A stretch of DNA of 43,104 nt, taken from sequence record PZ445418.1; one strand, written 5' to 3'. The translations under genes were made by a program, and so were the position numbers. The notes under the pieces were generated by a model, which was given only the letters and a program-made list of their open reading frames with translations, was not told where the DNA came from and made no database searches. Below are positions 5,218 through 41,947 of this stretch, in pieces; the first letter of the stretch is position 1, and the number at the start of each line of letters is the position of its first letter. The stretch comes from a phage.

Positions 5218-5246
5218 TTTTGCGTCCTCGTTGTTGGTGTGCAACC

Positions 5247-5275
5247 AATATATGCAACCAATACGCGGATTGCAA
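5247..5275 (-). promoter_or_regulatory. sigma70-like promoter TTGCAA-17-TATATT
   Basis: hexamers with 17-bp spacer on minus strand; two TGCAACCAAT copies (5240-5249, 5253-5262) overlap it. Confidence 0.5.
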
Positions 5276-5365
5276 GCGAATTTTGCGATTATTTTTATCA
5301 CTGATAATATTAGAGGCGTGAAGTCGAGCGGGTGGCCCGCTCTGCCACAATCCCAGGGGGATAGC

Positions 5366-6070
5366 ATGAAACTTACTAAAGCAGAATATGACGCGTTGCC
5401 GGAAGGTATGAAGGCGCTTTTTGTTGCCGATGGTGACGGGTATAAATCAACGTTCATGACCGCAGAAGAAGTACAGGCGGAAATCAAGGGTCTGAAAGAC
5501 AACAACGCGAAGCTGGTGAGCGAGAAGAAAGCAGAAGCCGAACGCCGCGCCGAAGCTGAGCGCCTTGCGAAAGAGAAAGAGGAAGCCGCCGCGCGCAAAA
5601 ATGGCGACCTCGAAGCGATCGACAAGTCCTGGAAAGATAAGTTTGCGAAACACGAAGCAGATACATCGGGAAAAATCGAAGCCTACCGCAAGCAGATCCA
5701 CGATCTAACCATCGGCAGCGCTGCCAAAGACCTGGCGTCGAAGCTGTTCGGTAAGAATGCGGGCATCATGCAACGCCACGTAATGGACCGCCTGACGCTG
5801 GAAGACGGTGAAGACGGCAGCTTGAAAGTGCGTGTCTTGCAGGATGGCAAACCGTCCGCGCTGACTATGGAAGAGCTTGAAAAAGAGTTCCGTAATAACG
5901 CCGATTTTGCATCCGTCCTGGCTGGCACGCCAGCCGGTGGCGCGCCTAGCAAACCGACGCAGGTTGTCGAAGATGTGAAGTCGAAAATCACTATGGGCCA
6001 TAGCTTCGGCATCACTGACCTTACGAAACAGGCAGGTGATATCATCGCTAAGATGGGCGACGACGAGTAA
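5366..6070 (+). CDS. scaffolding protein
   Basis: 234 aa, Ala/Glu/Lys-rich helical sequence directly upstream of capsid gene; RBS GGGGGA. Confidence 0.6.
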   Translation: MKLTKAEYDALPEGMKALFVADGDGYKSTFMTAEEVQAEIKGLKDNNAKLVSEKKAEAERRAEAERLAKEKEEAAARKNGDLEAIDKSWKDKFAKHEADTSGKIEAYRKQIHDLTIGSAAKDLASKLFGKNAGIMQRHVMDRLTLEDGEDGSLKVRVLQDGKPSALTMEELEKEFRNNADFASVLAGTPAGGAPSKPTQVVEDVKSKITMGHSFGITDLTKQAGDIIAKMGDDE

Positions 6071-6074
6071 GCAG

Positions 6075-6100
6075 ATTGCCCGCGAAAGCGGGCAATTTTG
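6075..6100 (+). terminator. intrinsic terminator (weak U-tract)
   Basis: ATTGCCCGC-gaaa-GCGGGCAAT then TTTTG. Confidence 0.45.
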
Positions 6101-6167
6101 CGAGCGCGTAAATCTAAGGTAACATTAACGTCACTGGGCGAATGCTCACAACTCAAAGGATTTCGAT

Positions 6168-7271
6168 ATGTCTTTAACAGTGTTCCAGCGTAAACTCGTT
6201 ACCGCGGTTACGCAAATGATCCCCGACAACCTGAACGTATTCAACGCTGCCGCCAATGGCGCTGTTGTTCTCGGTACTGGTGAAGTGCTGAAGGATGTTG
6301 TAGAAAAAATGTCCGTAGGCTTGATCGCCAACCTTGTTACCGACCGTAACGCCTACGCCCCTGTCGGTACTCCGGCAACCGCTAAAGTGCTGGCGCGTAT
6401 GCTGACCAACTCGGTTAACCTGTCCGCGAAAGTGGGTCCGGTGGCAATCACTAAGGCTATGATGGCTAAGATCGAAACCAACGTTAACAGCGTTGCGGCT
6501 GAGATTGCGGCACAGGCCACGCAAGCGATTATGCTGCATTACCTAAAAGCGGGTATCGGTGCGGGTAAAGCGGCGATCGAGAGCAACAACAACAACGCGG
6601 TATACACCCAACCGGCGCGCGTTGATGGCGTTGGCGGTCGTATCTTCCCGACCCTGGCTGACTTCCCGCTGGCGGCTTCTAAGTTCGGCGATCAGGCGTC
6701 TTTGATTAAGTCCTGGTTTATGGACGGCGTTACCTGGGCAAACTTCATTGCATACCAGGCGCTCCCTTCCGCTGAACAGGTATTCGCGATTGGCGATCTT
6801 CAGGTAATGGGCGATGGCCTGGGCCGTCGTTTCATTATCTCCGATGCCGCTGCCGATGCTATGGGTGCTGGTAAAATGCTGGGTCTGGTCCCTGGCGCGG
6901 TTGCAGTTACCACCAACGGCCTCGATATGCTGGCGCAGGAGAAAGGCGGTAACGAGAACATTGAGCGCTGGTGGCAGGGTGAGTTCGACTTCAACGTGGC
7001 TGTTAAAGGCTACCGTCTGAAGGCGTCCGCTCGTACCCCGATCGAAGGCGTCCGCTCGTTCAAGCTGTCCGATATCACCACCAAGGACAACTGGGAACTG
7101 GACCAGGGCCAGGTAGACAACGCACCGGCAACCGTTCAAGATGTTGGCGCTGTGGGTGATGGCGATACTAAAGGCCGTCGTAAGACCCAGGCCGCACAGG
7201 AAGTGCCGACCCGTCACATCAAGGAAACGGCTGGCGTACTGGTTACGCTGACTGCGACCACAGCGTCCTAA
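6168..7271 (+). CDS. major capsid protein
   Basis: 367 aa ORF after scaffold, followed by a strong terminator; position and size. Confidence 0.65.
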   Translation: MSLTVFQRKLVTAVTQMIPDNLNVFNAAANGAVVLGTGEVLKDVVEKMSVGLIANLVTDRNAYAPVGTPATAKVLARMLTNSVNLSAKVGPVAITKAMMAKIETNVNSVAAEIAAQATQAIMLHYLKAGIGAGKAAIESNNNNAVYTQPARVDGVGGRIFPTLADFPLAASKFGDQASLIKSWFMDGVTWANFIAYQALPSAEQVFAIGDLQVMGDGLGRRFIISDAAADAMGAGKMLGLVPGAVAVTTNGLDMLAQEKGGNENIERWWQGEFDFNVAVKGYRLKASARTPIEGVRSFKLSDITTKDNWELDQGQVDNAPATVQDVGAVGDGDTKGRRKTQAAQEVPTRHIKETAGVLVTLTATTAS

Positions 7272-7288
7272 CAGGCGCACATCCCAAA

Positions 7289-7314
7289 GGGGCGGGCATA
7301 AGCCCGCCTTTTTT
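7289..7314 (+). terminator. intrinsic terminator
   Basis: GGCGGGC-ataa-GCCCGCC followed by TTTTTT. Confidence 0.75.
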
Positions 7315-7329
7315 ATAGGAGTGAATACA

Positions 7330-7830
7330 ATGTATGGCGACCCGCAAACCTTTGTCGATTATGCCGCTGCGCGAGGCGTTGAAATTACGCTGGGCGATGC
7401 AACGCGACACCTTACCATCGTTAATGACTTCCTTAACGGCATCAACTGGATCGGCGAACAAGCAGACCAGACCGGAATCGACGCATGGCCCCGCATTAAT
7501 TACCCGTCAGACGGTAAGCCGGTGCGGGACACGCTCACTGAAGTTGTGGCGGTAGTGCCTGCCGGGAAGATCGTAGACTTCGCATCAATCCCCGTTGCTG
7601 TTGAGCAAGCCGTTTACCGGCTGGCAATGTTGGTGGCTGACGAGGTCGATATTTCTCCGATCGGCGATGGCAAGGAGACTATCCGCGAAACTGTAGGCCC
7701 GATCACGATGGAATATGACCCCGCGACGATTGGTAGCGGGGTGTCGTTCCCGTGGTGGGATGGCTTGCTGGGCCACTGGATTGACTCAAACGGCAACGCA
7801 GCGGGTAATTTTGACGTATTCCGGGGGTGA
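7330..7830 (+). CDS. putative head-tail connector protein
   Basis: ATG at 7330 with AGGAG RBS; position between capsid and tail genes. Confidence 0.45.
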   Translation: MYGDPQTFVDYAAARGVEITLGDATRHLTIVNDFLNGINWIGEQADQTGIDAWPRINYPSDGKPVRDTLTEVVAVVPAGKIVDFASIPVAVEQAVYRLAMLVADEVDISPIGDGKETIRETVGPITMEYDPATIGSGVSFPWWDGLLGHWIDSNGNAAGNFDVFRG

Positions 7831-7831
7831 T

Positions 7832-7951
7832 ATGAATCCTGCATTACTGGCGGCTATTATCGCCGCAAATACTAAACAGCCGACGGAACAAGAACCGGAG
7901 CCAGAACCAGTACCACCGGCACAGGAGAGCGAAGAAGATGGCGGGCTTTAA
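7832..7951 (+). CDS. small Pro/Glu-rich hypothetical protein
   Basis: 39 aa, ATG preceded by GGGGGTGA. Confidence 0.3.
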   Translation: MNPALLAAIIAANTKQPTEQEPEPEPVPPAQESEEDGGL

Positions 7952-8291
7952 TTACGCAGGATTAAAGCGGAAAGTGAATCCGCTGATTAAAAAATTCGGC
8001 ATGACCGTTACGGTTACGCGTCCGGGATCGGTTGACCGCGTAGACGGCGAAGAAGTTGTCATCCCACCGACCTCGTTTGACGTCATCGGTCTTCGCGAGG
8101 AGTACGAGCCGAGCGAGATCGACGGAACGCGTATCGTTGCCGGTGATGTGAAGTTTTTATGTCGGGCGGTTGAGCAATTGCGGGTGGGCGACCTGGTTAA
8201 CCTGAACGGCACTGACTACCGGGTCGTCAACCCTAACCCACTGCAACCAGCTGGCACTACCATGCTGTTTCAACTACAGCTAAGGGGCTAA
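7938..8291 (+). CDS. putative head-tail adaptor / head closure protein
   Basis: 117 aa, position in connector region. Confidence 0.45.
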   Translation: MAGFNYAGLKRKVNPLIKKFGMTVTVTRPGSVDRVDGEEVVIPPTSFDVIGLREEYEPSEIDGTRIVAGDVKFLCRAVEQLRVGDLVNLNGTDYRVVNPNPLQPAGTTMLFQLQLRG

Positions 8292-8292
8292 C

Positions 8293-8886
8293 GTGGCTGA
8301 AGTCTACTCATTCGCCGCCACTATTGCTACGTGGGTGGATAAGACGAAGGAGAACAACGATAAGGCGGTGCGGGCGTACGGAATGCAAATACTCGGACGC
8401 CTTATTGAGATCTCCCCAGTGGGCGACCCTCGCCGGTGGAAGATTAACAGGGCGTACGCGATGGCCCGCCAGCACGCGAACAAGGTGAACGCCGCACAGC
8501 GCCGCAAGAATGGCGGCAAACTGAAGCGCGGACAGAAGAAGCACGCCAGTGTGCTGGTATCATTCAAGACTAAAAACGGCAACGTCACGTTCCGCCAGCG
8601 TGGCTGGGCCGCGAAGAATTACACCGGTGGGCGCTTCCGTGGGAACTGGCAGGTGACGTTCGACCGCCCGGCTGTCGGCGCTATTGACCGCGTGGATAAG
8701 GCCGGAACGGCAACATTAGCCGCGGGGCGTGAAGTGCTGGCGCATTACGATTCCGGTGAATACGGGTCGATCTGGTTTACTAACAATGTGCCGTATGCGA
8801 AGCGACTTGAGTATGGTTGGAGTCTACAAGCGCCTGCGGGGATTGTTCGCGTCGTAGCGGCAGAAATTAATTCGAAGGTGAAATAA
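8293..8886 (+). CDS. putative neck / tail completion protein
   Basis: 197 aa, GTG start abutting previous stop; position. Confidence 0.45.
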   Translation: MAEVYSFAATIATWVDKTKENNDKAVRAYGMQILGRLIEISPVGDPRRWKINRAYAMARQHANKVNAAQRRKNGGKLKRGQKKHASVLVSFKTKNGNVTFRQRGWAAKNYTGGRFRGNWQVTFDRPAVGAIDRVDKAGTATLAAGREVLAHYDSGEYGSIWFTNNVPYAKRLEYGWSLQAPAGIVRVVAAEINSKVK

Positions 8887-9308: not shown

Positions 9309-9369
9309 TTTGGCGCTATTCTGCGCGTGCTGTATCATTAATCCGTATATCTAAACAGGAGCGTTCATT

Positions 9370-10095: not shown

Positions 10096-10125
10096 TTTGG
10101 TCGCTTAAATAGCGGGTGTTAATAT

Positions 10126-10148
10126 GGGGCCAGTACGGCCCCTTTTTT
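10126..10148 (+). terminator. intrinsic terminator
   Basis: GGGGCC-agtac-GGCCCC followed by TTTTTT. Confidence 0.75.
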
Positions 10149-10164
10149 ATTGGAGAATACTACA

Positions 10165-10841: not shown

Positions 10842-10845
10842 CGAA

Positions 10846-11161
10846 GCGGGACAGGGGTGCTGTCCCGTTCTGTCCCGCCCACAATGAATCTGCATACCTA
10901 TTCAGTTTTACTGCATAAACTAAAAGCGGGACGGCGGGACGTCCCGATCTGTCCCGCCCCAGAAATGTGAATACCTATTCAGTTTTACTGCATAAAACAA
11001 ACGGGACAAAAAGCGGGACAGAATGGGGCGGGACAGATCGGGACGTCCCGCCGTCCCCCTCAGTGCTGCCGCGGGTTTCGGCCGATCGGGACAGGCGGGA
11101 CAACCACCAGTCTTTCAGACTAGACGGGGGTCAATGGCCCCCCTCGTCTGAGACTGAATAA
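10846..11161. repeat. iteron element A: GCGGGACA(G/A) array, two 26-bp box repeats, terminal GC-rich hairpin
   Basis: box ATACCTATTCAGTTTTACTGCATAAA at 10894-10919 and 10971-10996; about 9 forward and 5 reverse GGGAC units incl. palindromes GGGACGTCCC; hairpin 11107-11158. Confidence 0.8.
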
Positions 11162-16638: not shown

Positions 16639-19600
16639 CGATTATCTACAACGTCACAGGGCATAAAGGCGGCGGCGGCAAACAGCACACTCCGCAGGAA
16701 ACGCCGGATAGCCTGCATTCCCTGGCTAAAATCCGCATCTTGCTTGCGCTAGGGGAAGGGGAATTCGAAAGTATTACCAGCGCCAGCGAATTACGGCAGC
16801 GTGTATATCTGGACGGCACTCCGATCCAGAACGCCGACCTGTCGGAAAACTTCCCCGGCGCGCGCGTGGAGTTCCGCCCGGGCACACAGCACCAGGACGT
16901 GATCCACGGATTTTCAGCGGTAGAAAGCGAGCAATCCGTCGGTGTAAAACTGGAAAACGGCACGCCGTGGGTGCGCCAGATTAATGACACCAGTCTTGAC
17001 GCCGTGCGCATTCGAATCGGCATTCCGGCTTTGTACACCAACGAAGATAACGGCGACCTGGTGGGCGGGCGCATCGACTATAAAATCGTTGTGTACACCG
17101 ATAACGCCGACCCGCGCGAGTTCAACTTCGCTGCCGTTGGTAAAACAATGTCGCTGTATGAGCGCGACCACCGCATCGAATTACCGCCGAACGTGAACAC
17201 CGGCTGGCGCGTGGAAGTGCACCGCACAACGGCGGATTCCACATCGGCGAAAGTGGTGAACGATATCCGGGTACAATCAATCACTGAGATTATCGACGCC
17301 CGTCTGCGCTACCCGCTAACCGCGCTGTTGTTCGTGGAGTTCGACGCTAAGGCGTTCCAGAACATCCCGCGCGTGTCCATCAAGTGCAAAGGTCGCAAAG
17401 TGCTGGTCCCGAACAACTACGACCCGATTAATCATACCTATTCTGGCGACTGGGACGGCACGTTCAAACGCGCATGGACGGATAACCCCGCGTGGCACTG
17501 GTACGATATTTGTATTACTGAGCGCTTCGGCCTCGGGCGTAGGATCAAGCCGCAAATGCTGAACCGGTACGCGCTATACCAGATTGCGCAGCGCTGCGAC
17601 CAAATGGTCAGTGACGGCAACGGCGGGCAAGAAATCCGCTTTAAGAATGATATGTACATTCAATCGCAGACAGACGCCTGGACCGTGCTTAAGGATTTAG
17701 CAGCTATCTTTGCCGGTATGACCTGGTGGGGCAACCAGATGTTGAATATCGTCAGTGACCAACCGGTAGCAGCAGTGTCTCACACTATCACCAACGCCTC
17801 GGTTATTGATGGTCGATTCGACTACGCGTCAGGGAGCCAGAAAACTCGGTATTCCACGTTCGCGGTAGCATACGGCAACCCGAAGAACCACTATGATGAT
17901 GCCATCGCAACGGGACAACGTGTCGAACTGGTACGCCGCCATAAGATCAACCGTCTTGATATCACGGCGATTGGCTGTACGCGTGAATCTGAAGCGCAAC
18001 GCCGCGGGCACTGGGCGCTAATATCCAACCAGCTTGACCAGCAAGTTAGCTTCAAAGTTGGCATGGAAGGGTTATTCTTTATTCCGGGTAGCGTAGTCGC
18101 GATCGCGGATACAAACATTTCTGGCGGCTTCGAGTCCCGAGGCGGTCGCCTGTTGTCAGATCCAGGCACGCGTACCGTGCTGAACACGGACTGCGAAATC
18201 ACGTTCCGTCCGGGTGATAAATTCCTGGTACGCACCGATAGCGGGAATGTGGAGACTCGCGAGATCGCCAGCGTCAACGGCAACCAGGTAACGCTAAAAA
18301 CCGCACTGGACGCCAACCCTATTCCTGATCAGCCGTTTTGCGTTGATGGCGACGATATCCAGTTGCAGAAGTTCCGCATAACCGACCTGGAATATGACGA
18401 CTCTACCAGCACTTTCTCGGTGCGTGGGATTGAATACAACGATAGCAAGTATGATGCCGTTGATAATGGCGCTCGCCTTGACCCTGGCATCTTCACGCAA
18501 GTGCCTGACGGCGTAATGAAGGGGCCAGAATCCGTGACCATAACCCCGTCGCAGATTTCATCGCAAGGCCAGCTAATCACCAACGTGGATATTGTTTTCC
18601 CGCCGGTGAAGGATGCCGTTGTATATGAAATCCAGTGGCGACGAACCAGCTTGCAGAATATGGAAATCCAGTGGGGTAACGACTGGGTGAACATCCCCCG
18701 CACGGCATCGAACGGCGCGCACATCCCGAACGTGTTTTCCGGGAACTATCAGGCGCGCGTTCGCGCAATCGGTATGGGCGAAATTTCATCCCCGTGGGTG
18801 TCTTCCGCAATCACGCCGGTGGAAGGTCGCCTCGGCGGGCTTAATGCGCCAATCATCACCAACGCGATTTCAGGTTTGCACCAGATCCTATGGAAGTGGA
18901 ACCACAACAACGCCGCTACGGATATTTCGCACACCGAGCTTGAAGTCCGCAAGACGGGTGAGACGGAATGGAGGTTCCTAACCAACGTCCCATACCCTGG
19001 GTCGGAGTATGCGCAAACGTCGCTGGAGTTCGGCATCTATCAGCAGTTGCGCGCCCGTGTAGCGGATAAAATCGGCAACCTGTCGGACTGGTCCGCCCCG
19101 TTTGAAGGCCAGGTGAGTGACAAAGTTGACGAGTACATGAAGGGGCTTGATGACGAGTTCTTGACGTCCGAGGATGGCAAACGCTTCCAGGAAGCGATCG
19201 ACACCATGCCGCAAGGCATTTATGAGGCCATGCTAACGGACGCACAGCAGTTGTTTAACGCCCGCGCCGAGTACAAGGGGATTTATGCAGAAATCTCGGT
19301 CGCGTATAACGTGGCGGCAGATGCCCGCCAGGCGGTAGCGCAACTGGAAACGTTGATCGGCACTCGCCTTGACGATGCTGAAGCGGCAATCCACACGTTG
19401 CAGACCGCGCAGAGTACGCAGGAACAAGCGTTCGCCCAGTACCAGCAAACTGTTGCCGCTAAGTTCGGGGAACAGGAAGCCGCCATCCAGCAGGTACAAA
19501 CGGCAACCGCAGACGTTGCGGGAGCGCTGGCGGAGTATAAGACCCAGGTCGCGGCGCAGTTTGATCAGCAGTCCGCAGCTATCGAGCAGAAGATGACGTC

Positions 19601-21334: not shown

Positions 21335-21363
21335 AGTATTGCACCGCTCAACCAAGAATGCAA
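21335..21363 (-). promoter_or_regulatory. sigma70-like promoter TTGCAT-17-AATACT for lipoprotein gene
   Basis: hexamers with 17-bp spacer; -35 overlaps TGCAACCAAT (21359-21368). Confidence 0.4.
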
Positions 21364-21384
21364 CCAATTTATGAGGATTCAGCT

Positions 21385-24793: not shown

Positions 24794-25259
24794 GTAGCTC
24801 ACTCTCGCTCATTATTTCAATTTGCGCGCTGCCGGTGGGTGGCGCTTCGTCAAAGATTATCAATTGCTGGCACTTGTTATTGCTCGGACCGACTTCGCCG
24901 GTGACGGCGTGAATGAATCGAACACGCCAGTCCAGAAGAATTATCAGGTTTGCAGTCTTCCGGGCCAGCTTCGCCCACTTCGTCGACGTGTCCTGATTCA
25001 GTAGCATGACGGTCCGACGTCCATGCGCTGCGCACTCAACCCACGGCAGCGGATCGGAATACGGCGGGTTGCACCACTTCCACCCTTTCAGCTCTGACCA
25101 GTCCGCATCGAGCGCGCTGTGCTCTGCCGTGAAGTAACGCGGTAGCAGGTGGTTGGCATCGCTTGCCGCCATATCGTAACGGAATCGGTACTTCCGGCGC
25201 AGTGGTTTAAATAAAGCTGGCGGTGTGCGCCAGCTATCTTTTTGCTCACTCTTCTGCAT
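24774..25259 (-). CDS. dam: DNA N6-adenine methyltransferase (phage Dam family)
   Basis: 161 aa with NPPY motif (WKWCNPPYSD) and N-terminal W-R-T-P. Confidence 0.8.
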   Translation of the reverse strand: MQKSEQKDSWRTPPALFKPLRRKYRFRYDMAASDANHLLPRYFTAEHSALDADWSELKGWKWCNPPYSDPLPWVECAAHGRRTVMLLNQDTSTKWAKLARKTANLIILLDWRVRFIHAVTGEVGPSNNKCQQLIIFDEAPPTGSAQIEIMSESELHEYLSR

Positions 25260-25756: not shown

Positions 25757-25785
25757 AATATAATGCAACCAATAGGGTTATGCAA
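25757..25785 (-). promoter_or_regulatory. sigma70-like promoter TTGCAT-17-TATATT
   Basis: two TGCAACCAAT copies (25764-25773, 25781-25790); same hexamers as 38620-38648. Confidence 0.5.
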
Positions 25786-25790
25786 CCAAT

Positions 25791-28707: not shown

Positions 28708-28986
28708 CTACGCGACCAATTCAGCAACCAATAAATCACAGTCGGCTATGTTGTCGATAACGCGAACGTCAGCACCGCGGCGGGCCATTCTCACATGCTC
28801 ACGTACCTGGTGCGGCTTCGGTTTTCCGCCGGGGCGCTTCACTTCGACGAACACTATGATGCCGTTGATTATGATAATCAGGTCGGGCGCACCCGCGCGC
28901 CCCTCCCATGCCAGTTTGCGGCAGAAGCCGCCTACCTCTTTCACCCGTCGCATCAGGTGACTTTGAATCTTGCCTTCGGGTGTCAT
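28708..28986 (-). CDS. VRR-NUC domain nuclease
   Basis: DLIII...FVEVKRPGGKPKPHQ PD-(D/E)xK-like core; 92 aa. Confidence 0.65.
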   Translation of the reverse strand: MTPEGKIQSHLMRRVKEVGGFCRKLAWEGRAGAPDLIIIINGIIVFVEVKRPGGKPKPHQVREHVRMARRGADVRVIDNIADCDLLVAELVA

Positions 28987-32472: not shown

Positions 32473-32562
32473 TTTCCAATTCCTCATTTTCACATGTATC
32501 GGGGTTATTGTGAGCCACCCCGTTCGGCTTGGTTGCTAATCTACTTGGTTGCGCCTAAGCGG

Positions 32563-32805
32563 TCAAGCATTTTCATTAAAAAGATTTCGGGTCACGTAGT
32601 TGGCGGCGTTCTCGACCCAGCTTAGCGGCGGGCGTTCGCCATGTCTCGCGATCCACGCCACGGCAATGGTGCTGTATCCATCGTCCAGCCAGCTGGTCGG
32701 ATGGCGAATCATCCAGGCCACCATTAACACGCCTTGCACGCAATGCAGGATAAATCCAAGCGCGCCGAGCAAAAACATCAATAAGATTGCGAATACTTTA
32801 TTCAT
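32563..32805 (-). CDS. small membrane protein
   Basis: 80 aa with two hydrophobic helices. Confidence 0.35.
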   Translation of the reverse strand: MNKVFAILLMFLLGALGFILHCVQGVLMVAWMIRHPTSWLDDGYSTIAVAWIARHGERPPLSWVENAANYVTRNLFNENA

Positions 32806-34228
32806 TGCTTAAGTCCTCGTCAGTAGCTTCCGACCACGCAGGGCGAGGGTCGTCGATTGGTGCTAACACCGGTTTGGCTGGTGCGCGCGTGATTTTATCA
32901 CACAGCTTCGCCCACACTTTCGGCTTTTCGTCCTTCAATACCTTCTCGGCATCCGTAGGGCTGAGCAATGTTTCTTTGTACATCACATCGCGCTTAATCC
33001 GGGCCTTCGTGAATATTTCAATCACTTCGCTCTCGTCCGCCCACTTCCGGATCCCTTCCTTACCGGCAACCATCTTGAGGCCCAGCGATTCGCCAGCCCC
33101 CGCCATTACCGCTTTGAATACCGCGGACTCGATAGCTTTGATGTGCTGGCGCATTGCGTCCAGGCCTTCATAAGCCTTGCGCAGTTCCGCAGCGCTCATA
33201 GCACCGGGGGCCGCTTCTTTCTTACCACGCTTCGCACGTCGTGCCGCCTTCCTGGCTTCGCGGGCCATATTGCGATCGTGAGTGGCGCATTCTTCCTCGG
33301 TCGCCACGCTCACGTCGTCGCCCAGGTCTTCGTCTGTTGCCGTTGGGGGTGTCATCGTGTCGATTGCGGCCTTAGCGCGGGCACTACACTGATCCGCAAA
33401 TCGGCACCACTGGCACGCATCAACGCTGGGACGGAAGTCGGCACGGGTAAGTCCCTTCTTGCCTCGGGAATACGCCTCCAGTGCGGCAATAGCGCGCTTG
33501 GATGCAAACTTCGAGAATATCTCCAGCGCTTCTACCGAAATATCCCACTCCGACGCCCCGCCGCAATACGGCTGGAAGATAACCAGGCGAACGGTCGTAA
33601 TGTCGTACATAGTTTGCAGCTTGCGCAGCAGTCCGAGCGCGTACAACATAAGCTGTTTGTTCTCTTTCGCCTCGACCTTATGACGCCCGGTCTTCAGGTC
33701 GCCAACAATCAGCATGTACGTTCCATCGGTCTTTTTCATGACCATGACCATATCGGCAGTACCGAACGTTTTAATCCGGTTGCCGTCGATCTCGTAGCCT
33801 GGGTGAAGGACGCGGGTCAGATCGGCGCGCATCTCAAGCTGGACAAACTCCGCCACTTCGAGGAGCGGTCGCCAGTGGTCAATGTACGCGTCGCACTGTT
33901 TCACCATGTCGTCGTTGACCAGTACGCCGCCTTTCGGTGCTTTCGGGTGTGCCTTTACTGGCCCCCTGCCTTCGTTCTCGACGTAGCACCCTTTATATGT
34001 CTCCGCGGTAATCAGCTTCTCACCGGCGATAATGCGGTTTAGCACCACTTCAGATACGGTGTGCATACTCGTACCGTTAATCGCGGCTTGCCCGGATTCG
34101 TTCGGGATATCTTTTTCCACCACCAGGGCGGCAGGACACCCCATCCATTTTTTAGCACCGGATGGCCCAAGTAATGAGTGTTCTGTATTGCTACCGGATT
34201 GCGTTTTACGTTTTGGTTTAATCGCCAT
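32798..34228 (-). CDS. Cas4-like PD-(D/E)xK exonuclease (DUF2800-like)
   Basis: N-terminal S-L-L-G-P-S-G-A-K-K-W-M-G-C-P, nuclease core D-M-V-M..V-G-D-L-K, C-terminal C-Q-W-C-R-F-A-D-Q-C cysteine cluster. Confidence 0.65.
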   Translation of the reverse strand: MAIKPKRKTQSGSNTEHSLLGPSGAKKWMGCPAALVVEKDIPNESGQAAINGTSMHTVSEVVLNRIIAGEKLITAETYKGCYVENEGRGPVKAHPKAPKGGVLVNDDMVKQCDAYIDHWRPLLEVAEFVQLEMRADLTRVLHPGYEIDGNRIKTFGTADMVMVMKKTDGTYMLIVGDLKTGRHKVEAKENKQLMLYALGLLRKLQTMYDITTVRLVIFQPYCGGASEWDISVEALEIFSKFASKRAIAALEAYSRGKKGLTRADFRPSVDACQWCRFADQCSARAKAAIDTMTPPTATDEDLGDDVSVATEEECATHDRNMAREARKAARRAKRGKKEAAPGAMSAAELRKAYEGLDAMRQHIKAIESAVFKAVMAGAGESLGLKMVAGKEGIRKWADESEVIEIFTKARIKRDVMYKETLLSPTDAEKVLKDEKPKVWAKLCDKITRAPAKPVLAPIDDPRPAWSEATDEDLSNE

Positions 34229-34407
34229 TATTCCACCCGTGTAAACTGGACAATTACATATTTCACATTTGCCAGGCCCGCTTTTTCGACTCGGCGCTTA
34301 ACTTCATTTTGCGCGTCCACAAAGCAATTGCTTGCGTTGGTGTTTTCAACAATAAAAGAAGTGTGGTCGTTTAATTCGTGGCATGTTGCCAGCACGAAGA
34401 ATTTCAT
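34228..34407 (-). CDS. small hypothetical protein
   Basis: 59 aa (MKFFVLATCHEL...) not in ORF track; GGGAGA RBS; TAATG coupling at both ends. Confidence 0.35.
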   Translation of the reverse strand: MKFFVLATCHELNDHTSFIVENTNASNCFVDAQNEVKRRVEKAGLANVKYVIVQFTRVE

Positions 34408-34658
34408 TATTTCGTCTCCCAGCGGTCAATTGTTTTTGCTTCGGATGCAACTGCGAAGCGAACATATTCCAGATTGGAGTCTGCCCAAATATAAAAGTCG
34501 GGGTTAGTAAAGGTGGTGCGCTTAATTTGCGCAGGAGTATTGCGGCGTTTATCAATTACGGCAACGCGTGACTGAAAGCTGCCGATGCGTTCGAATAGCC
34601 AATAGTACGGGCGCTGGTCGCGGGAATCCACCGCCTCGATTAGCGTGAAGCGTGCCAT
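34407..34658 (-). CDS. hypothetical protein
   Basis: 83-aa track ORF in the coupled early operon. Confidence 0.4.
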   Translation of the reverse strand: MARFTLIEAVDSRDQRPYYWLFERIGSFQSRVAVIDKRRNTPAQIKRTTFTNPDFYIWADSNLEYVRFAVASEAKTIDRWETK

Positions 34659-34706
34659 TGTCTCTTCCTCTAAAAATAGGCCCGCAGATTAGCGGGCCGG
34701 ATAATA

Positions 34707-35135
34707 TTAGTCTTCCAGTTCGAAATAGGTTTCGACGATTTCTTTCAGATCTTTGTGGAAGTCTTCGACGTCGTCATCTTCCAGCTTGGCGATTGATTTG
34801 ATCTCAAACGCTTCCAGCAGGTCGTCAAATTCGTCGTTCGCGTCGTCGTCGTCACCACCAGCGATAATAGCGGCGTACTGTTTGATCTCATCGCGCATCT
34901 CTGCCAGCGGGTCGGCATCTTTCTTACCTTTTCCTTTCGCCGGAGCTTTTTTACCCTTCGCTGGTTTTTCGTCTTCGGCTTCATCGTCGTCATCTTCTAC
35001 GACTTCTTTTTTGGCCTTAGACGGCTTCTTGTCTTCCTGCTTACCAACGGCAGCGCCAACGGTTTCATAATGCTTAGCGATGGTTTCCAGTGCTACTACG
35101 CCGCGAGTAATCAGGTTTACGATTTGCTCAAACAT
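34707..35135 (-). CDS. acidic/Lys-rich early protein, first gene of leftward operon
   Basis: 143 aa from ATG at 35135 with GGAG RBS; runs DDDDEAEDE, GGDDDDANDEFDD, LEDDDVED plus KPAKGKKAPAKGKGKK; track ORF extends upstream to 35363. Confidence 0.5.
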   Translation of the reverse strand: MFEQIVNLITRGVVALETIAKHYETVGAAVGKQEDKKPSKAKKEVVEDDDDEAEDEKPAKGKKAPAKGKGKKDADPLAEMRDEIKQYAAIIAGGDDDDANDEFDDLLEAFEIKSIAKLEDDDVEDFHKDLKEIVETYFELED

Positions 35136-35331
35136 GGTATATCTCCAATTGGTTAAGTTTAGGTGTCGACCATTAACCTCGTCGGTGGCCTTAACATATT
35201 GCCTGGTTACGCGTTCTCCCGTTCGGGTAGTGGACCAGGTTATATAATCACGGTTGGGAATCCTGACACTTCGATCCGGCCCCTGCGTCGCCCCTCTCCA
35301 GTTTGCGTCCTGCATCCTGTCGACGGAGTGC

Positions 35332-35360
35332 ATATTAGATTGGTTGCAGAAGGGAGTCAA
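35332..35360 (-). promoter_or_regulatory. sigma70-like promoter TTGACT-17-TAATAT (leftward early promoter)
   Basis: good hexamers, 17-bp spacer containing TGCAACCAAT (35339-35348 on plus strand). Confidence 0.5.
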
Positions 35361-35370: not shown

Positions 35371-35406
35371 AAAAAAAAAGCGCCGAGGCAAAATGCAACG
35401 GCGCTA
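35371..35406 (-). terminator. intrinsic terminator on minus strand
   Basis: AGCGCCG / CGGCGCT stem followed on minus strand by nine U. Confidence 0.6.
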
Positions 35407-35428
35407 ACCAATAAGAGACAATGAGACG
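35371..35428 (-). ncRNA. candidate small RNA (about 58 nt)
   Basis: minus-strand promoter-like TTGAAA-17-AATAAT (35435-35463) followed within about 60 nt by the terminator above; no ORF. Confidence 0.25.
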
Positions 35429-35476
35429 GGATTTATTATTACACGCGTGCGCGCCCGTTTCAATATTCCAAAGGAG

Positions 35477-35505
35477 TTGACACCCTGCGGTTTTAGGTGT
35501 AGTTT
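35477..35505 (+). promoter_or_regulatory. sigma70-like promoter TTGACA-17-TAGTTT
   Basis: perfect -35, weak -10, upstream of HTH gene. Confidence 0.4.
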
Positions 35506-35536
35506 CATTGGTCATTAACCAACCGGAGACAGAACA

Positions 35537-35866
35537 ATGAACGTAAACGACGCAATCGAAATGTTAACCAAGACTGTTTGCAGTGAGACAAGCCGGTCCT
35601 GGGCGTATACCGATGCCGTGGGGGCGGTGTTATTCGAGGTCGAACGTCTGCGCAGTGTAGAAAAAGAATTACGCGCCAGGCTGGAATTGCTCAACGGTAC
35701 GGCGGCGAGCAAGCTGCAAAAGCACAATGAGGAAATGGAAGAATACAAAAAGCAGGTTATCCGTTTGCGCGCCGAGGGAAAGTCATGGGCGATGATCGCG
35801 GAGTTGACAGGAATTAATCAGAGCACCGTGCGATCCTGGGTACGCAATAACAAAACTTCGAAGTAA
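35537..35866 (+). CDS. helix-turn-helix DNA-binding protein
   Basis: 109 aa, C-terminal GKSWAMIAELTGINQSTVRSWVRN HTH-like segment; GGAGA RBS. Confidence 0.55.
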   Translation: MNVNDAIEMLTKTVCSETSRSWAYTDAVGAVLFEVERLRSVEKELRARLELLNGTAASKLQKHNEEMEEYKKQVIRLRAEGKSWAMIAELTGINQSTVRSWVRNNKTSK

Positions 35867-35876
35867 GGCAACGGCA

Positions 35877-38141: not shown

Positions 38142-38260
38142 ATTTTGCGCGCATTGGTTGCCGATATGGGAATTCCCATATCGCTAAAAGGTTAAATTTT
38201 GCGCGCATTGGTTGCCATTTTGAGTGTTTTTATTTGGTCGTATTGGTTGCCGTGTAGTGT
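38138..38260. repeat. direct repeats flanking a perfect 20-bp palindrome
   Basis: TTAAATTTTGCGCGCATTGGTTGCC at 38138-38162 and 38192-38216; palindrome GATATGGGAATTCCCATATC at 38163-38182; third ATTGGTTGCC at 38242-38251. Confidence 0.75.
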
Positions 38261-38268
38261 AAATATAG

Positions 38269-38463
38269 TGAATAGTTATGCAGTTTTATTGCATAAAGTA
38301 AGCGGGACAGAAAGCGGGACAAACAAGGGGCGGGACAAAGCGGGACAGCACCCCCGTCCCGCCCCGGATGGCGCGGCTTCCAGAGGAGCGGGACAGCGGG
38401 ACAGCACCCCAGTCTTTCAGACTAGACGGGGGTCATCGGCCCCCCTCGTCTGAGACTGAATAA
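38269..38463. repeat. iteron element B (second copy of element A)
   Basis: box TGAATAGTTATGCAGTTTTATTGCATAAA, six GCGGGACA(G/A) units, terminal hairpin differing from copy A at only 2 positions. Confidence 0.8.
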
Positions 38464-38619
38464 AATCCGGGGGATTGCAAAATACACGGCAGCATGTTGC
38501 GAAGTGCGGTCGCGGATGAACTAGGCAACCAATGCGAGATGCATTATGCGGAGTGAAAAACACAGTTTGCAGTTGCAGCAGATAGCGATCAACTTTTTCA
38601 TGCGCATGTTTGATATTGG

Positions 38620-38648
38620 TTGCATCCGCCCTAGCACCCTGCTATATT
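38620..38648 (+). promoter_or_regulatory. sigma70-like promoter TTGCAT-17-TATATT
   Basis: flanked by ATTGGTTGCA at 38615-38624 and 38645-38654; leader matches the one upstream of 4453..5217. Confidence 0.55.
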
Positions 38649-38676
38649 GGTTGCACACCAACAAGAGGACTGAACA

Positions 38677-38982
38677 ATGAAAGCGATTATCTGGAATTAC
38701 TCCCTGGCCGTGGCAAAGCTGGACGAAGCGAAGGCACTAAACAGCAACGTAGATCAGGCGCTTCAGGTTGCGATACTGGCGCATCAATCCCTTCGCAGCG
38801 CGCTCTATGGCATGGGCGCCAGCATGGACGAACTGAGGCCGTTGCGTATGGCAATCCACGAATACGCGCGGGCATTCTCCCGTGAGCGCCTGGCGTATCG
38901 CTTCGGTATTGGCGATAAGGCAGTGACAAACGTCGCCAGGATTAAAGCCCAGCGCGAGCTATTCGCCCAGCTTGCGAAATAA
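38677..38982 (+). CDS. hypothetical protein
   Basis: 101 aa helical protein, RBS GAGGA. Confidence 0.5.
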   Translation: MKAIIWNYSLAVAKLDEAKALNSNVDQALQVAILAHQSLRSALYGMGASMDELRPLRMAIHEYARAFSRERLAYRFGIGDKAVTNVARIKAQRELFAQLAK

Positions 38983-38991
38983 GGGGCCAAA

Positions 38992-39261
38992 ATGAGACGT
39001 AGACGAGCTAAACAGCTTTCATGGCATATTCCACTGCATTGCATACGAATATGGGCTGAGAATGCGGTTGAGGGCGATTCTGTGTTCTGGTGCTATCGCG
39101 ATGATGTGAAGCCACTGACGCAGACTCGCTACTTGCACCAGTTTGCAGCACAACACGATTTCAGGGTGCGGACTTCCTTGCAACCAATGGGCATTCGTAT
39201 TACATTACGCCGGAAGCCCGCCGTTGAGCGGGTAGGCAAACACTGGAGGCTGAGCAAATGA
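38992..39261 (+). CDS. hypothetical protein
   Basis: 89 aa, RBS AAGGGG. Confidence 0.45.
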   Translation: MRRRRAKQLSWHIPLHCIRIWAENAVEGDSVFWCYRDDVKPLTQTRYLHQFAAQHDFRVRTSLQPMGIRITLRRKPAVERVGKHWRLSK

Positions 39262-39410
39262 CACCAATGCAAAGGGCACTAATGGCGGGATTCTCGCAGA
39301 AGTTTATTTCAGTAGACGCCTGCATAGCTGATTATGAGATGGACGGCATCGCTACGGTATGCGATGGCGACTATAAGACTGTTGACGAGATCGAGGAGAC
39401 TGAGCAATGA
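39258..39410 (+). CDS. small acidic hypothetical protein
   Basis: 50 aa, ATGA overlaps at both ends; not in ORF track. Confidence 0.35.
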   Translation: MTPMQRALMAGFSQKFISVDACIADYEMDGIATVCDGDYKTVDEIEETEQ

Positions 39411-39979
39411 AATTACTATTCCGCCGTAAGTGCGATGGCTGCATCCTGAAGCCGATCCAGACCCTGGATTCCTACGTCCGCTTGCAAAACGCGGCAGGCA
39501 ATCGGGTGTGGTGGGCGAAGAAAGACAAGCTGACGGCAAACTTTGACGTACTCACCCACGATATCGAGCGCGGCGATGTGCTGCGGGATATTCGCGACGG
39601 GCAGCTATGGATCGTGGAATACGTTGGTTTTAATAGCCTTCGTATGCAGACGCGCAAGGGTGGCGTTGCTGGTAACCTGGTTAAGAGCGTGGCGTACTTC
39701 GGACTAATCAACTACGAGCGAGTGGGCCGCAAATACAGCCTTCGCAAACACCAGCCGCATGAGCGCGTCGAGTTCCGCAAGTCGCAGCCCGCGTATGCCA
39801 CCTACGACGCGAGCAAAGTGATGGAGCCGATCCGTCAGGCGGCGCATGAGATAGTCAATCGCGTTGATGCCGTGACGAATGCACAGCGCCATGCGCAGGA
39901 ATACGGCGTGGGATTCATCCGTGTCGAACGAGACGGCAGCATGAACGCCATCGACCCGCGCTCGGTGATTCTGAAATGA
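39407..39979 (+). CDS. hypothetical protein
   Basis: 190 aa, translationally coupled. Confidence 0.5.
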   Translation: MKLLFRRKCDGCILKPIQTLDSYVRLQNAAGNRVWWAKKDKLTANFDVLTHDIERGDVLRDIRDGQLWIVEYVGFNSLRMQTRKGGVAGNLVKSVAYFGLINYERVGRKYSLRKHQPHERVEFRKSQPAYATYDASKVMEPIRQAAHEIVNRVDAVTNAQRHAQEYGVGFIRVERDGSMNAIDPRSVILK

Positions 39980-40116
39980 GTGCGACGATCCGTGATATGC
40001 TTCAGCACAACCGCTTTGAGATAGGCGGTCGGGTATTTCGCAATTACTTCGTGGCGCGTGCATGGGCGCGCCATATTGGAAAACCGGAAGGGGCAATACG
40101 ATGCTACACGATTTGA
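39976..40116 (+). CDS. small hypothetical protein
   Basis: 46 aa, ATGA overlap with previous gene; not in ORF track. Confidence 0.3.
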   Translation: MSATIRDMLQHNRFEIGGRVFRNYFVARAWARHIGKPEGAIRCYTI

Positions 40117-40388
40117 TATATTGGTTTGGTTTGATCTGCGGGCTGTGCCTGCTTACCGCGGTGCTGGTGGGCGTCCTGATGTTCGTAGTGTGGCCCGCGG
40201 TGGAAGCCGCCAGCATTACCCGCATGACGTTCGAGATATACAAGCGCCGTGGAATCAAGGAGCACCCGACCAGGTTGCGCATGTGGTGGCTGTGGTATCG
40301 CGATATGATAGGCGGGCGAACATTCGAAGCCGTCCGGTCTAGTGGATGGGAGTGGAAAGGCGTCGGCAAGTGGTCCATTTTCGATTAA
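40101..40388 (+). CDS. membrane protein (one TM helix)
   Basis: from ATG at 40101; hydrophobic YWFGLICGLCLLTAVLVGVLMFVVW then basic/Trp-rich tail. Confidence 0.45.
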   Translation: MLHDLIYWFGLICGLCLLTAVLVGVLMFVVWPAVEAASITRMTFEIYKRRGIKEHPTRLRMWWLWYRDMIGGRTFEAVRSSGWEWKGVGKWSIFD

Positions 40389-40405
40389 TTATGCAAGCGT
40401 GATAT

Positions 40406-40440
40406 AGTCCCAGTGAGATAAAACTTACTGGGACTTTTTT
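40406..40440 (+). terminator. intrinsic terminator abutting holin start
   Basis: AGTCCCAGT / ACTGGGACT 9-bp stem, 12-nt loop, TTTTTT ending at 40440; ATG at 40441. Confidence 0.65.
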
Positions 40441-40731
40441 ATGGATAAGCTAAACGAGTGGTTATTCGCCCTTGCGTGTCTTGCTGGTGGCTTCGTCGGC
40501 GCACGCATTCATGGCGAGGCAACGAAAGGGCCGTTGAACTTCGTTTTATATGTCGTGGTTGGCTTCCTGTGTGCCATATTTGGTGCGCCAGCTATTGCCG
40601 AGTGGTCTGGTTTGTCTGGTGAGCGCACTGTTGCCGGTTTGGGCTTCGTAACTGCCATCTTCTGGATGCCAATAGCTGACCGGATCCGGGAGACAATTGC
40701 GTCGCTACACCTTCCGGGGGGCGCAAAATGA
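40441..40731 (+). CDS. holin
   Basis: 96 aa with about three hydrophobic segments, immediately upstream of second membrane protein and endolysin. Confidence 0.6.
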   Translation: MDKLNEWLFALACLAGGFVGARIHGEATKGPLNFVLYVVVGFLCAIFGAPAIAEWSGLSGERTVAGLGFVTAIFWMPIADRIRETIASLHLPGGAK

Positions 40732-40973
40732 TTATCACCGTCCTGTTGTTTGTTATCATAGGGGCTTCGTCCCTGTTTAACGTGTATGCGCCGTCCGTCC
40801 AGGATGGCATTTTAGGCCGGGTGTTATATCTGCTAACAGCGATGATCTGCGTTATCGGATTGTTGCAAACAGGAGACGTATCTGACACCACCTGGACCGC
40901 GTTAATCTGGCTGTTTGCATTGCGCACCCTGCGTAATGCTGTTTTGAATGGGGTAAAACATGCGATTCAGTGA
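40728..40973 (+). CDS. second holin/antiholin-like membrane protein
   Basis: 81 aa, two hydrophobic helices, ATGA coupling. Confidence 0.5.
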   Translation: MIITVLLFVIIGASSLFNVYAPSVQDGILGRVLYLLTAMICVIGLLQTGDVSDTTWTALIWLFALRTLRNAVLNGVKHAIQ

Positions 40974-41451
40974 TAACGGTCTACGATTTACGGCAGCATG
41001 GGAGACGTTCAGCCCAGTGCCGTATTTCGCGACTAAGAAAGAGCAGGCCCGCGGCCTGTACACCTGGGGTTATGGTCATACCGGCACTAACCCGCCTCGA
41101 AGCATTACCCGCGCGGAAGCGCTGGAGCTACTTAAGCACGATGTGGCGTATGCTGAGGACTGGGTGAACAAATACGCACATCCGAGCATTAACCAGGCGC
41201 AATTCGACGCGCTGGTGGACCTGGTAATCAATGCTGGTCCGGGTCCGATCGTACCGGATGACGTCGCGAATGATTTCGATGATGCGGTGCGACTGGGCGA
41301 CTGGGCGAAGGTACGGGCTACTCTGCCGCAGTTCCGCAAGCAAGGTGGGGAAGTGCTGAAGGGGTTAGTCCGTCGAGCAATCGGCAGGCAGGCGCTATTC
41401 GATGGTAAGCAGTGGGACGTTGCCGAGAAGATCGGACGTAACGCAGCATAA
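40960..41451 (+). CDS. endolysin, GH24 lysozyme-like
   Basis: GYGHTG and N-Q-A-Q-F-D-A-L-V-D-L-V-I-N resemble P22 gp19 / T4 lysozyme family. Confidence 0.7.
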   Translation: MRFSDNGLRFTAAWETFSPVPYFATKKEQARGLYTWGYGHTGTNPPRSITRAEALELLKHDVAYAEDWVNKYAHPSINQAQFDALVDLVINAGPGPIVPDDVANDFDDAVRLGDWAKVRATLPQFRKQGGEVLKGLVRRAIGRQALFDGKQWDVAEKIGRNAA

Positions 41452-41467
41452 TACGGGGTAACACAGT

Positions 41468-41881
41468 ATGTTAAAAAGTATTCTTGATCATAACGCCGAC
41501 GCGCTCGCCGCGCTGGCTAAAACCGAAGACCCTGGCGCACGCGCTATCATCGCGGACACTATCAGCCATGCAGGCGTCTTTGACGCGAAGCTGCCTAGCG
41601 TGCCGGAGAGTAAGCCGGTGGCAAGTGCGACCATAACCATCACCCCAGTGTCCGCCGCAGTCGGTGCGAAGGCCGCCGCTTCTGTTGCCGTCCAGCCATC
41701 CGACGCAACTAACAAGGCTGGGAAGTGGGTGTCCGCAAACCCTGACTGCGCGGCAATCGACCAGACTACCGGCGAAATCACAGCGAAATCGGAGGGTGGC
41801 GTCCACATCTTTTGGGTGGCATCCGATGGAGGCGGGGCGATGGCGTCCGCCATCTTCACCGTAACGGGAGCAGGAGCATAA
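41468..41881 (+). CDS. Ig-like (Big_2-type) domain protein
   Basis: C-terminal 80 aa fit Big_2 pattern (ITITP...ATNK...W-S-NP...A-ID...G-ITAK..G...I....DGG). Confidence 0.5.
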   Translation: MLKSILDHNADALAALAKTEDPGARAIIADTISHAGVFDAKLPSVPESKPVASATITITPVSAAVGAKAAASVAVQPSDATNKAGKWVSANPDCAAIDQTTGEITAKSEGGVHIFWVASDGGGAMASAIFTVTGAGA

Positions 41882-41887
41882 AACCAC

Positions 41888-41915
41888 AAGCCCGGTTAAT
41901 TCCGGGCTTTTTATT
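41888..41915 (+). terminator. intrinsic terminator
   Basis: AAGCCCGG-ttaatt-CCGGGCTT followed by TTTTATT. Confidence 0.7.
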
Positions 41916-41917
41916 GC

Positions 41918-41947
41918 TTGACTTGCAACCAACTATCAGACCATACT
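41918..41947 (+). promoter_or_regulatory. sigma70-like promoter TTGACT-18-CATACT
   Basis: TGCAACCAA directly after -35; followed by strong RBS GAGAGGAG. Confidence 0.35.

Follow-up and report, generated by a model that had tools for sequence, protein, structure and literature searches.

The C1 repressor of the temperate phage P1 recognizes an asymmetric 17-bp operator present in many dispersed copies, and gp71 of mycobacteriophage L5 binds 13-bp stoperators (~30 copies, in one orientation relative to transcription), where it blocks elongation. In DnaA-box and RepE/RepA iteron-plus-operator systems the same protein acts at the origin and at regulated promoters; the T4 MotA box and the lambda CII sites are activator-only and position-fixed. 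We investigated a phage DNA of 43,104 nucleotides (record PZ445418.1; the window, meaning this whole stretch), which is the essentially complete 43.1-kb genome of a Dhillonvirus (HK578/SO-1-like) coliphage with 91–92% identity to phages rolling, Envy and GeorgBuechner, and which carries many copies of a short word, (A/G)TTGGTTGC(A/C), here called the box. Judged by its sequence pattern, the box is a real, conserved and previously undescribed cis-regulatory element, a dispersed operator network with an origin-side cluster. We consider it, with a probability of about 0.55, to be the operator of a sequence-specific DNA-binding protein, placed inside core promoters; protein binding, a repressive effect and the identity of the protein are what we infer. 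Searchable full-text literature, queried for the word and for Dhillonvirus/HK578/SO-1 promoters and transcriptomes, yielded no description of the box (the original SO-1 paper lies outside that literature).

The box resembles P1 C1 operators in being asymmetric, with many dispersed copies that overlap promoters, single or paired in varied arrangements; it differs in its length of 9–10 bp and in belonging to a virulent phage (isolates of Dhillonvirus are called lytic in titles and abstracts). Pfam and PHROG family scans of the small proteins turned up no C1 homologue and no repressor or integrase family, which speaks against a temperate immunity repressor. With L5 stoperators the box shares a short asymmetric site repeated many times, mostly in short intergenic gaps; unlike them, it has a mixed orientation relative to local transcription (11 forward and six reverse copies in the window) and lies in core promoters.

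The window was compared with seven other Dhillonvirus genomes, two diverged relatives (L150 and L151) and outgroups including eiAU-183, Smarc3, Tsm2, phiEap-2, GRNsp27, Jersey, K1H and T1, and the GeorgBuechner annotation was transferred to its genes. An unbiased k-mer scan ranked ATTGGTTGC first among the 9-mers of the window, with 14 copies against 0.47 expected; 12 of the 14 are intergenic, though ~89% of the window codes and ~11% is non-coding. The exact 10-mer ATTGGTTGCA occurs nine times against 0.07 expected, a number reached by none of 100 shuffled sequences, and 15 times against 2.96 expected when up to one mismatch is allowed. Anchored on TTGGTTG in ten genomes, the consensus is (A 67%, G 16%) TTGGTTG C(92%) (A 52%, C 23%), with the information confined to those ten positions. 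An earlier inspection of the letters (the sequence-only reading) had described a recurrent motif marking at least seven promoter regions. Every site that it listed, from 5240 to 41924, proved correct, while its list omitted an exact copy at 39179, ATTGGTTGCT at 28723 and two copies of CTTGGTTGC at 32528 and 32544. As for promoters, the box marks eight with strong copies, one inside gp54 and two with degenerate copies, and 13 of the 17 strong copies in the window are at promoters (Table 1).

Copies of the box occupy three kinds of place in sigma70-type core promoters. At 38615 (gp53), 25781 (gp33), 28723 (gp39) and 21359 (gp27) its TTGCA serves as the -35 element, 17 bp from a TATATT, TATAGT or AATACT -10 element. 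Other forward copies lie in the spacer or on -10/+1 (25764, 5253, 5240 and 38646). Reverse copies, which abut the -10 element, lie in the spacer or at +1 of promoters with a good TTGACx -35 element (35339 for gp48, 32544 and 32528 for SSB, and 41924 after the gp63 terminator). The overlap with a -35 element at a 17-bp spacing, which the sequence-only reading had described for intergenic copies, therefore holds for the first four promoters and fails for the spacer and -10/+1 copies (5240, 5253, 25764, 38646 and 32528–35339) and for those at 38153–38533, which have no -10 element. The distance from the end of the box to TAnnnT is 18 nt at five of 41 independent sites, against 0.39 expected per offset, and this register recurs in L150, L151 and Edwardsiella phage eiAU-183.

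Such a register raises the possibility that the box is only a promoter element, an extended -35 (ATTGG+TTGCA) read by host RNA polymerase alone, with the extra copies being remnants of promoter duplication. The fixed 17-bp spacing at 38615, 25781, 28723 and 21359, and in L150, L151 and eiAU-183, fits this explanation, as do the ~27 nt, leader included, that the gp07 and gp53 promoters have in common. It does not account for copies in spacers, on -10/+1 and after +1 in both orientations, for the copies at 38153–38533 that have no -10 element at a sensible distance, or for promoters with a good TTGACx -35 element that still hold a box in the spacer. Sigma70 makes no base-specific contacts at -40 to -36, yet ATTGG, which falls there, upstream of the -35 hexamer, matches the TTGC part in conservation (0.95–0.97 for both), so that constraint is not limited to the hexamer. 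The conserved ATTGG, the spacer and start-site copies, the two orientations and the origin-side cluster together make a pure promoter element insufficient, and we regard it as the least probable of the explanations weighed here. The suggestion that the motif is an operator rather than a mere promoter variant agrees with these observations: its position varies, and copies occur away from promoters.

Conservation of the box points to selection. In each of the seven other Dhillonvirus genomes fetched, ATTGGTTGC ranks first among 9-mers (13–17 copies per genome; eight of eight with the window), and the sites are orthologous across Dhillonvirus genomes. In alignments around 17 window sites, identity at box positions 1–9 was 0.95–0.97, with 0.67–0.97 (mostly 0.67–0.91) in the ten upstream columns and 0.75–0.90 downstream. 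L150 and L151 have helicase-primase proteins 69–70% identical to that of the window and DNA that is mostly unalignable; the box is still their top word (seven copies in 6.1 kb and six in 10.9 kb, respectively). The gp48 and SSB promoters of L151 each have a spacer filled by two tandem 9-bp copies (e.g. TTGACG-CAACCAACGCAACCAAG-TATTGT), and in the same genome a second copy lies on -10/+1 of the promoter equivalent to the 41924 site; both L150 and L151 have a perfect TGCAACCAAT at or just after +1 of the gp50 promoter. The box has thus been re-placed within the same core promoters, its position turning over while its presence is retained, as expected for repressor sites. Many copies, non-random promoter placement and purifying selection on the site are what a dispersed multi-copy operator should have, and the box has all three.

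The 10-mer had been read as a half-site of the palindrome ATTGGTTGCAACCAAT, and hence possibly as the operator of a dimeric phage regulator. The full palindrome has zero occurrences; most copies are single or direct repeats (spacings 9, 12, 13, 17, 31, 35 or 54 bp), a pattern unlike the two inverted half-sites at constant spacing of a dimeric palindromic operator. An imperfect inverted pair, ATTGGT-N5-ACCAAC, in three leaders only (5240, 38646 and 35507), and one tail-to-tail pair in relatives hint faintly at a dimer. This tail-to-tail pair, TTGCAACCAAcctATTGGTTGCAA (GeorgBuechner 24953–24976), is orthologous in all seven relatives checked (GeorgBuechner, SO-1, HK578, CHD5UKE2, Ioannina, Oekolampad and EE09), and the segment is missing from the window; it could form a 10-bp hairpin or be a symmetric binding site.

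The three leaders also bear on a host protein, conserved in Enterobacterales and exploited by the phages, as the factor that binds the box. The E. coli PdhR/LldR (GntR-FadR type) box is ATTGGT-N3-ACCAAT, with the half-site ATTGGT, and a host factor would suit the near-identical boxes in Escherichia, Edwardsiella and Serratia phages that share no lineage-specific DNA-binding protein. The leaders, however, have N5 rather than the N3 of PdhR/LldR, most sites are single instead of palindromic, and the conserved positions 7–9 (TGC) fall outside the PdhR half-site. Moreover, the specificity of a host factor is normally constant, whereas related Enterobacter and Salmonella phages use the variant GTTGGCTGY and Jersey and K1H show weak enrichment or none. 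We know of no E. coli factor that matches the 9-mer, and a host origin of the binder appears very unlikely.

The four copies at 38153, 38207, 38242 and 38524 have no recognizable promoter. They flank an iteron array of GCGGGACA in a stretch whose counterpart in the SO-1 record is labelled repeat 'region B ... possible ...', and, in view of this annotation, region B is the probable replication origin. The box cluster beside iterons and an AT-rich region is kept across relatives, as expected of an origin accessory box. On this ground the box might belong in the first place to the origin, as an initiator or accessory box, and its binder (e.g. the helicase-primase or an unrecognized initiator) would regulate promoters secondarily. 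In every lineage examined the largest cluster coincides with the 3' end of the helicase-primase gene or comes just behind it, flanking the landmark aatagttatgcag...aataaataagc and iterons: this is so in the window, L150, L151 and Ioannina, in eiAU-183 (~11 copies after that gene), in Smarc3 (four copies) and, with the variant GTTGGCTG(T/C), in phiEap-2 and GRNsp27, and the helicase-primase is common to all these phages. Nevertheless, the 13 promoter copies lie outside the origin-like region, region A, the other iteron array, is free of boxes in the window, and no part of the helicase-primase tracks either repeat; an origin element in the first place is therefore unlikely, in our view. The likeness to DnaA boxes and RepE systems goes as far as a 9-mer in both orientations, clustered by the origin beside an AT-rich stretch and iterons and also found in promoters. 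The box differs from them in matching the DnaA consensus TTATCCACA at four of nine positions (by inspection), in coexisting with a separate iteron family, and in having most of its copies at promoters.

The box extends to other phage genera. In eiAU-183, TTGGTTGC occurs 23 times against 2.2 expected and GTTGGTTGCA ten times against 0.14 expected, and two promoters are of identical design. Serratia phages Smarc3 and Tsm2 have 12–13 copies against ~1.6 expected, and the aligned copies are almost all identical between both. The variant in phiEap-2 and GRNsp27 is at homologous origin-side positions, beside the landmark and lineage-specific iterons; in GRNsp27 it is also found upstream of the homologous first promoter, where the leader ACACCAACAGAGGAGA matches the gp53 leader of the window. 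Enrichment is weak or absent in Jersey, K1H and T1. The iterons themselves have switched, from GCGGGACA to GGTGTGGCA in L151 (6640–6760; window equivalent 38300–38410), and are CGGACAA in phiEap-2 and GGGGGAGA in GRNsp27; the landmark and a downstream hairpin are kept despite these switches.

If the box is an operator, its protein and sigma region 4 would be direct competitors at the four promoters where TTGCA doubles as the -35 hexamer. At the other promoters, with the box in the spacer, on -10/+1 or just past the start in either orientation, occupancy would block RNA polymerase. Most transcription units would thereby come under a co-ordinated control, negative or temporal, and the antisense 'moron' genes in the late operon would be among them. 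These antisense genes (gp07/Nmad5 and gp27) are all on box promoters, which would be sensible if they are silenced during late read-through. As boxes flank the iteron array of the probable origin, the same protein probably would act there too.

The opposite sign of control can be drawn from part of the same evidence: a phage protein at the -35 copies might recruit or re-target RNA polymerase as a class II or MotA-like activator, switching on middle or late promoters, while spacer copies switch off early ones. The strict register at promoters with a weak TTGCAT or TTGCTG -35 element, the opposite orientation of the spacer boxes at promoters with a strong TTGACx, and the above-threshold match of the gp50 helix-turn-helix (HTH) to Sigma70_r4_2 (see below) are in line with such an activator, and like the MotA and CII sites the box is a phage-specific site at or over the -35 element in fixed register to the -10. 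It departs from those sites in also lying in spacers, on -10/+1 and away from promoters. Forward copies are found in the spacers and on -10/+1 of the same weak promoters, where binding should inhibit, and the promoter ahead of the terminase genes has the 'repressed' design. No CII homologue was found, and none of MotA or AsiA among 20 small proteins searched with Pfam and PHROGs. Activation as the main role thus seems improbable, though the -35 copies may have an activating part.

As the regulator, the sequence-only reading had named the HTH protein encoded at 35537 (gp50) and a Zn-ribbon protein as candidates. gp50 is the only recognizable HTH protein among ~20 small window proteins in the Pfam and PHROG scans. 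It scored above the gathering cut-off for HTH_23 (30.9 against 24.6 bits), HTH_28 (28.4 against 25) and Sigma70_r4_2 (27.7 against 25.7), and below it for GerE (15.9 against 23.5) and HTH_3 (17.7 against 23). A single-sequence AlphaFold2 model (predicted local distance difference test score, pLDDT, 84) has one long helix (residues 21–79) followed by an HTH that resembles those of LuxR/GerE/NarL and of resolvases, with Foldseek E-values that are not significant (>=0.3); the C-terminal domain aligns with SdiA/RhlR over 34 residues at up to 38% identity, which is likewise non-significant. The NarL/GerE/LuxR regulators offer a parallel in their short asymmetric sites, arranged singly or as direct or inverted repeats at variable spacing, and in a fold that the gp50 C-terminal domain resembles; gp50 differs in having a long helix only, with no receiver or ligand domain.

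gp50 is present in all Dhillonvirus-type genomes. Its N-terminus is hypervariable (alleles of 77% and 47–49% identity), while the HTH half is nearly invariant. Between the window and L150/L151 the HTH half has 21 synonymous against 8–9 non-synonymous codon changes, and the N-terminal part 1–4 against 24–30; by these codon counts, the HTH half is under strong purifying selection. L151 retains the box and the gp50 HTH unaltered even though its iteron is a different one; the HTH thus goes with the box rather than with the iteron. This co-conservation makes the proposal of gp50 plausible. The Zn-ribbon proposal was not supported: there is no conserved small protein with a Zn-ribbon signature, and the only Cys-rich open reading frame (ORF), at 42057–42227, is absent from seven of seven relatives.

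Several points weigh against the operator reading, and the first against gp50 in particular. A gp50-type HTH is absent from eiAU-183, Smarc3 and Tsm2 even by profile search, though the box is present, and a Cro/XRE-like protein fills the gp50 slot there; gp50 is thus not found wherever the box system is. The box is accordingly older than gp50, which undermines gp50 as its binder; a factor common to the relatives without gp50, or one from the host, is no less likely. Across the compared phages, no protein was found to track the box in distribution or in sequence, nor any DNA-binding-domain protein to match its phyletic pattern. It would have to be explained why a virulent phage keeps nearly all of its promoters under a repressor, even the one before the terminase genes, and a strictly fixed register at four to seven promoters would suit an activator as well. 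Every promoter here was predicted from consensus sequences, and those with TTGCAT as their -35 element score under the threshold of the scan tool. Full-text literature searches found no binding, transcription-start or expression data for these phages.

Weighing these, we place the binder at less than even odds in any one class. Another phage protein shared by these genomes comes first as a possible binder; gp50, the best candidate encoded in the window, follows as a tentative and rather doubtful one; a host protein has a small chance, and RNA polymerase with no separate binder the smallest. A broader scenario, which we think quite unlikely, is that the box is the cis-element of an ancient, unrecognized regulator in several virulent siphovirus genera (Dhillonvirus, Eiauvirus and Guernseyvirinae-like), coupling the origin to global promoter control, with a specificity that drifted between TTGGTTGC and TTGGCTGY. 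The binder would then be a conserved replication protein whose part in transcription has gone unsuspected; alternatively, early HTH proteins with no homology to one another (gp50 and the Cro/XRE-like protein) would have come, by convergence, to use a single inherited network of operators.

Dhillonviruses are among the most often isolated coliphages and figure in phage-therapy and host-interaction collections such as BASEL. For them the box gives a promoter map of at least nine transcription units with predicted starts and a single short bait sequence for finding the regulator. It is also an engineering handle, because promoters can be tuned or silenced through it, and its presence in genera without gp50 sets up a comparison of how dispersed operator networks are inherited.

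Table 1 Box copies and associated features in the window.
Feature	Positions	Strand	Description
gp07 (Nmad5) box ATTGGTTGCA	5240-5249	-	overlaps -10/+1; TTGCAA(5275-5270)-17-TATATT(5252-5247); kept in 7/7 relatives
gp07 spacer box	5253-5262	-	inside gp07 promoter spacer
gp27 box	21359-21368	-	TTGCA supplies -35; TTGCAT-17-AATACT; degenerate copy cTTGGTTGag at 21347-21356
gp33 spacer box	25764-25773	-	inside gp33 promoter spacer
gp33 box	25781-25790	-	supplies -35 TTGCAT; 17 to TATATT(25762-25757); offset 18 nt
gp39 degenerate second copy ATTGGTCGC	28712-28720	-	gp39 promoter
gp39 box ATTGGTTGCT	28723-28732	-	supplies -35, in 3' end of gp40; TTGCTG-17-TATAGT(28704-28699)
SSB +1 box CTTGGTTGC	32528-32536	+	reverse; +1 region of SSB promoter
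SSB box CTTGGTTGC	32544-32552	+	reverse; in spacer, abuts -10; minus-strand promoter TTGACC(32566-32561)-17-TAGATT(32543-32538)
gp48 box	35339-35348	+	reverse; in spacer of minus-strand promoter TTGACT(35360-35355)-17-TAATAT(35337-35332)
gp50 degenerate inverted pair ATTGGTcattaACCAAC	35507-35523	+	at +1; TTGACA 35477-35482, TAGTTT 35500-35505
gp50	35537-35866	+	long helix and C-terminal HTH; candidate box-binding protein
Region B box ATTGGTTGCC	38153-38162	+	right after helicase-primase stop codon
Region B box ATTGGTTGCC	38207-38216	+	in duplicated segment AAARrTTAAATTTTGCGCGCATTGGTTGCC
Region B box ATTGGTTGCC	38242-38251	+	upstream of iteron array
GCGGGACA iteron array, 6 copies	38302-38403	+	flanked by region B boxes; probable origin
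Region B box	38524-38533	-	downstream of iteron array, opposite orientation
gp53 box	38615-38624	+	supplies -35 TTGCAT 38620-38625
gp53 second box	38646-38655	+	overlaps -10 (TATATT 38643-38648) and +1
Box inside gp54	39179-39188	-	overlaps possible plus-strand internal promoter TTGCAA(39178-39183)-17-TACATT(39201-39206)
Box GTTGGTTGCA after gp63 terminator	41924-41933	-	reverse; right after -35 of plus-strand promoter TTGACT(41918-41923)-18-CATACT(41942-41947)

The plus strand carries structural and lysis genes from 1 to ~24.8 kb and from 38.7 kb to the end, and gp50 followed by the helicase-primase gene at 35.5–38.1 kb. The replication operon is on the minus strand (24.6–35.3 kb), and a divergent early control region lies at 35.3–35.5 kb. 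The HK578 record annotates only three consensus promoters, all in the divergent region. An Rfam search gave no matches.

The gp07 and gp53 leaders (5218–5245 and 38650–38676) share CACACCAACAA(C)GAGGA, and this CA-rich leader also stands before the first gene past region B in L151 (~6990–7010) and in GRNsp27 (L148, ~18370–18390), even without an overlapping box; it may be a conserved translation-initiation leader. gp07 (4453–5217, minus strand) is an Nmad5 (nucleotide-modification-associated) gene, antisense within the structural operon and with its own box promoter. Its slot holds other cargo in SO-1 (DNA pol III beta-like) and in HK578, with promoter and leader retained, and in eiAU-183 the Nmad5 gene is at another location.

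In the divergent region, a strong minus-strand promoter (35371–35463; TTGAAA-17-AATAAT with TG) is followed ~25 nt on by a degenerate box ATTGGTTAGC (35403–35412) and an intrinsic terminator (35371–35405). The predicted transcript is ~55 nt, in a place where relatives annotate a 36-aa 'gp49', and could represent a small RNA, or else an attenuated leader that precedes the gp48 promoter. gp48 itself (34707–35315, minus strand) is a 202-aa ORF with a long acidic/lysine-rich tail. Because most of its homologues are shorter (133–170 aa) and cover its C-terminal 70% alone, translation may in fact begin at the internal Met61 (~35135). The EE09 homologue (CDS56) was detected by proteomics (PMC10673088).

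Other candidates for the binder were set aside. The very basic gp54 has 28% identity in L151 while the box is unchanged; the window has no counterpart of the gp64-type 'transcriptional regulator' of SO-1; and gp48, a helical segment with an acidic tail, is unlike a specific DNA binder. Dam alone is both shared with Smarc3, Tsm2 and eiAU and missing from phiEap-2 and GRNsp27; the latter two, however, have the variant box, and a 9-bp methylase site is implausible. Nmad5 is absent from SO-1 and HK578, both of which have the box. The Cro/XRE-like slot protein of the outgroups has no window homologue, and the box variants are not mirrored in how its recognition helices group. A search for a helicase-primase sub-domain that follows the iteron switch found no discriminating region. 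A sigma54 promoter was dismissed by inspection, the GG-to-GC spacing being wrong. The single-sequence model of gp47 was of low confidence (pLDDT 62).

An IMG/VR scan for two boxes within 30 bp gave, outside Dhillonvirus, coding tandem repeats (27-bp period) or chance pairs, in sequences that share no proteins with the window. Distant IMG/VR relatives of gp50 (L024–L026, 31–38% identity) are from low-GC phages without the box and hence uninformative. In T1 (L154) the word CTGAYTGGT, which shares the ATTGGT core with the box, has 25 copies against 0.63 expected; being distributed uniformly over the coding DNA, on either strand, it represents a different phenomenon.

The iteron word GCGGGACA(G) has 15 copies against 1.4 expected in the window, in two arrays, 10846–11102 (SO-1 'region A') and 38302–38403 ('region B'), a layout that recalls a two-site origin such as P4 ori/crr. 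Region A also contains two copies of the palindrome CGGGACGTCCCG (10935–10946 and 11039–11050). GeorgBuechner annotates the iteron arrays as small ORFs (gp18 and gp52), which are probably not genes. A perfect 20-bp palindrome with an EcoRI site inside, GATATGGGAATTCCCATATC (38163–38182), lies between the copies of the duplicated ~33-bp segment of region B and is poorly conserved in relatives. The Cys-rich ORF at 42057–42227 (plus strand; GKCCRVECC) occupies a variable slot between gp63 and TerS, which in most other Dhillonviruses holds a 380-aa metallophosphatase-like gene. Finally, ACGGCAGC and CGGCAGC-type words occur 27 times against 3.2 expected in the window, with a mild plus-strand bias (20 against seven) and no reading-frame preference, and are over-represented in every related phage examined.

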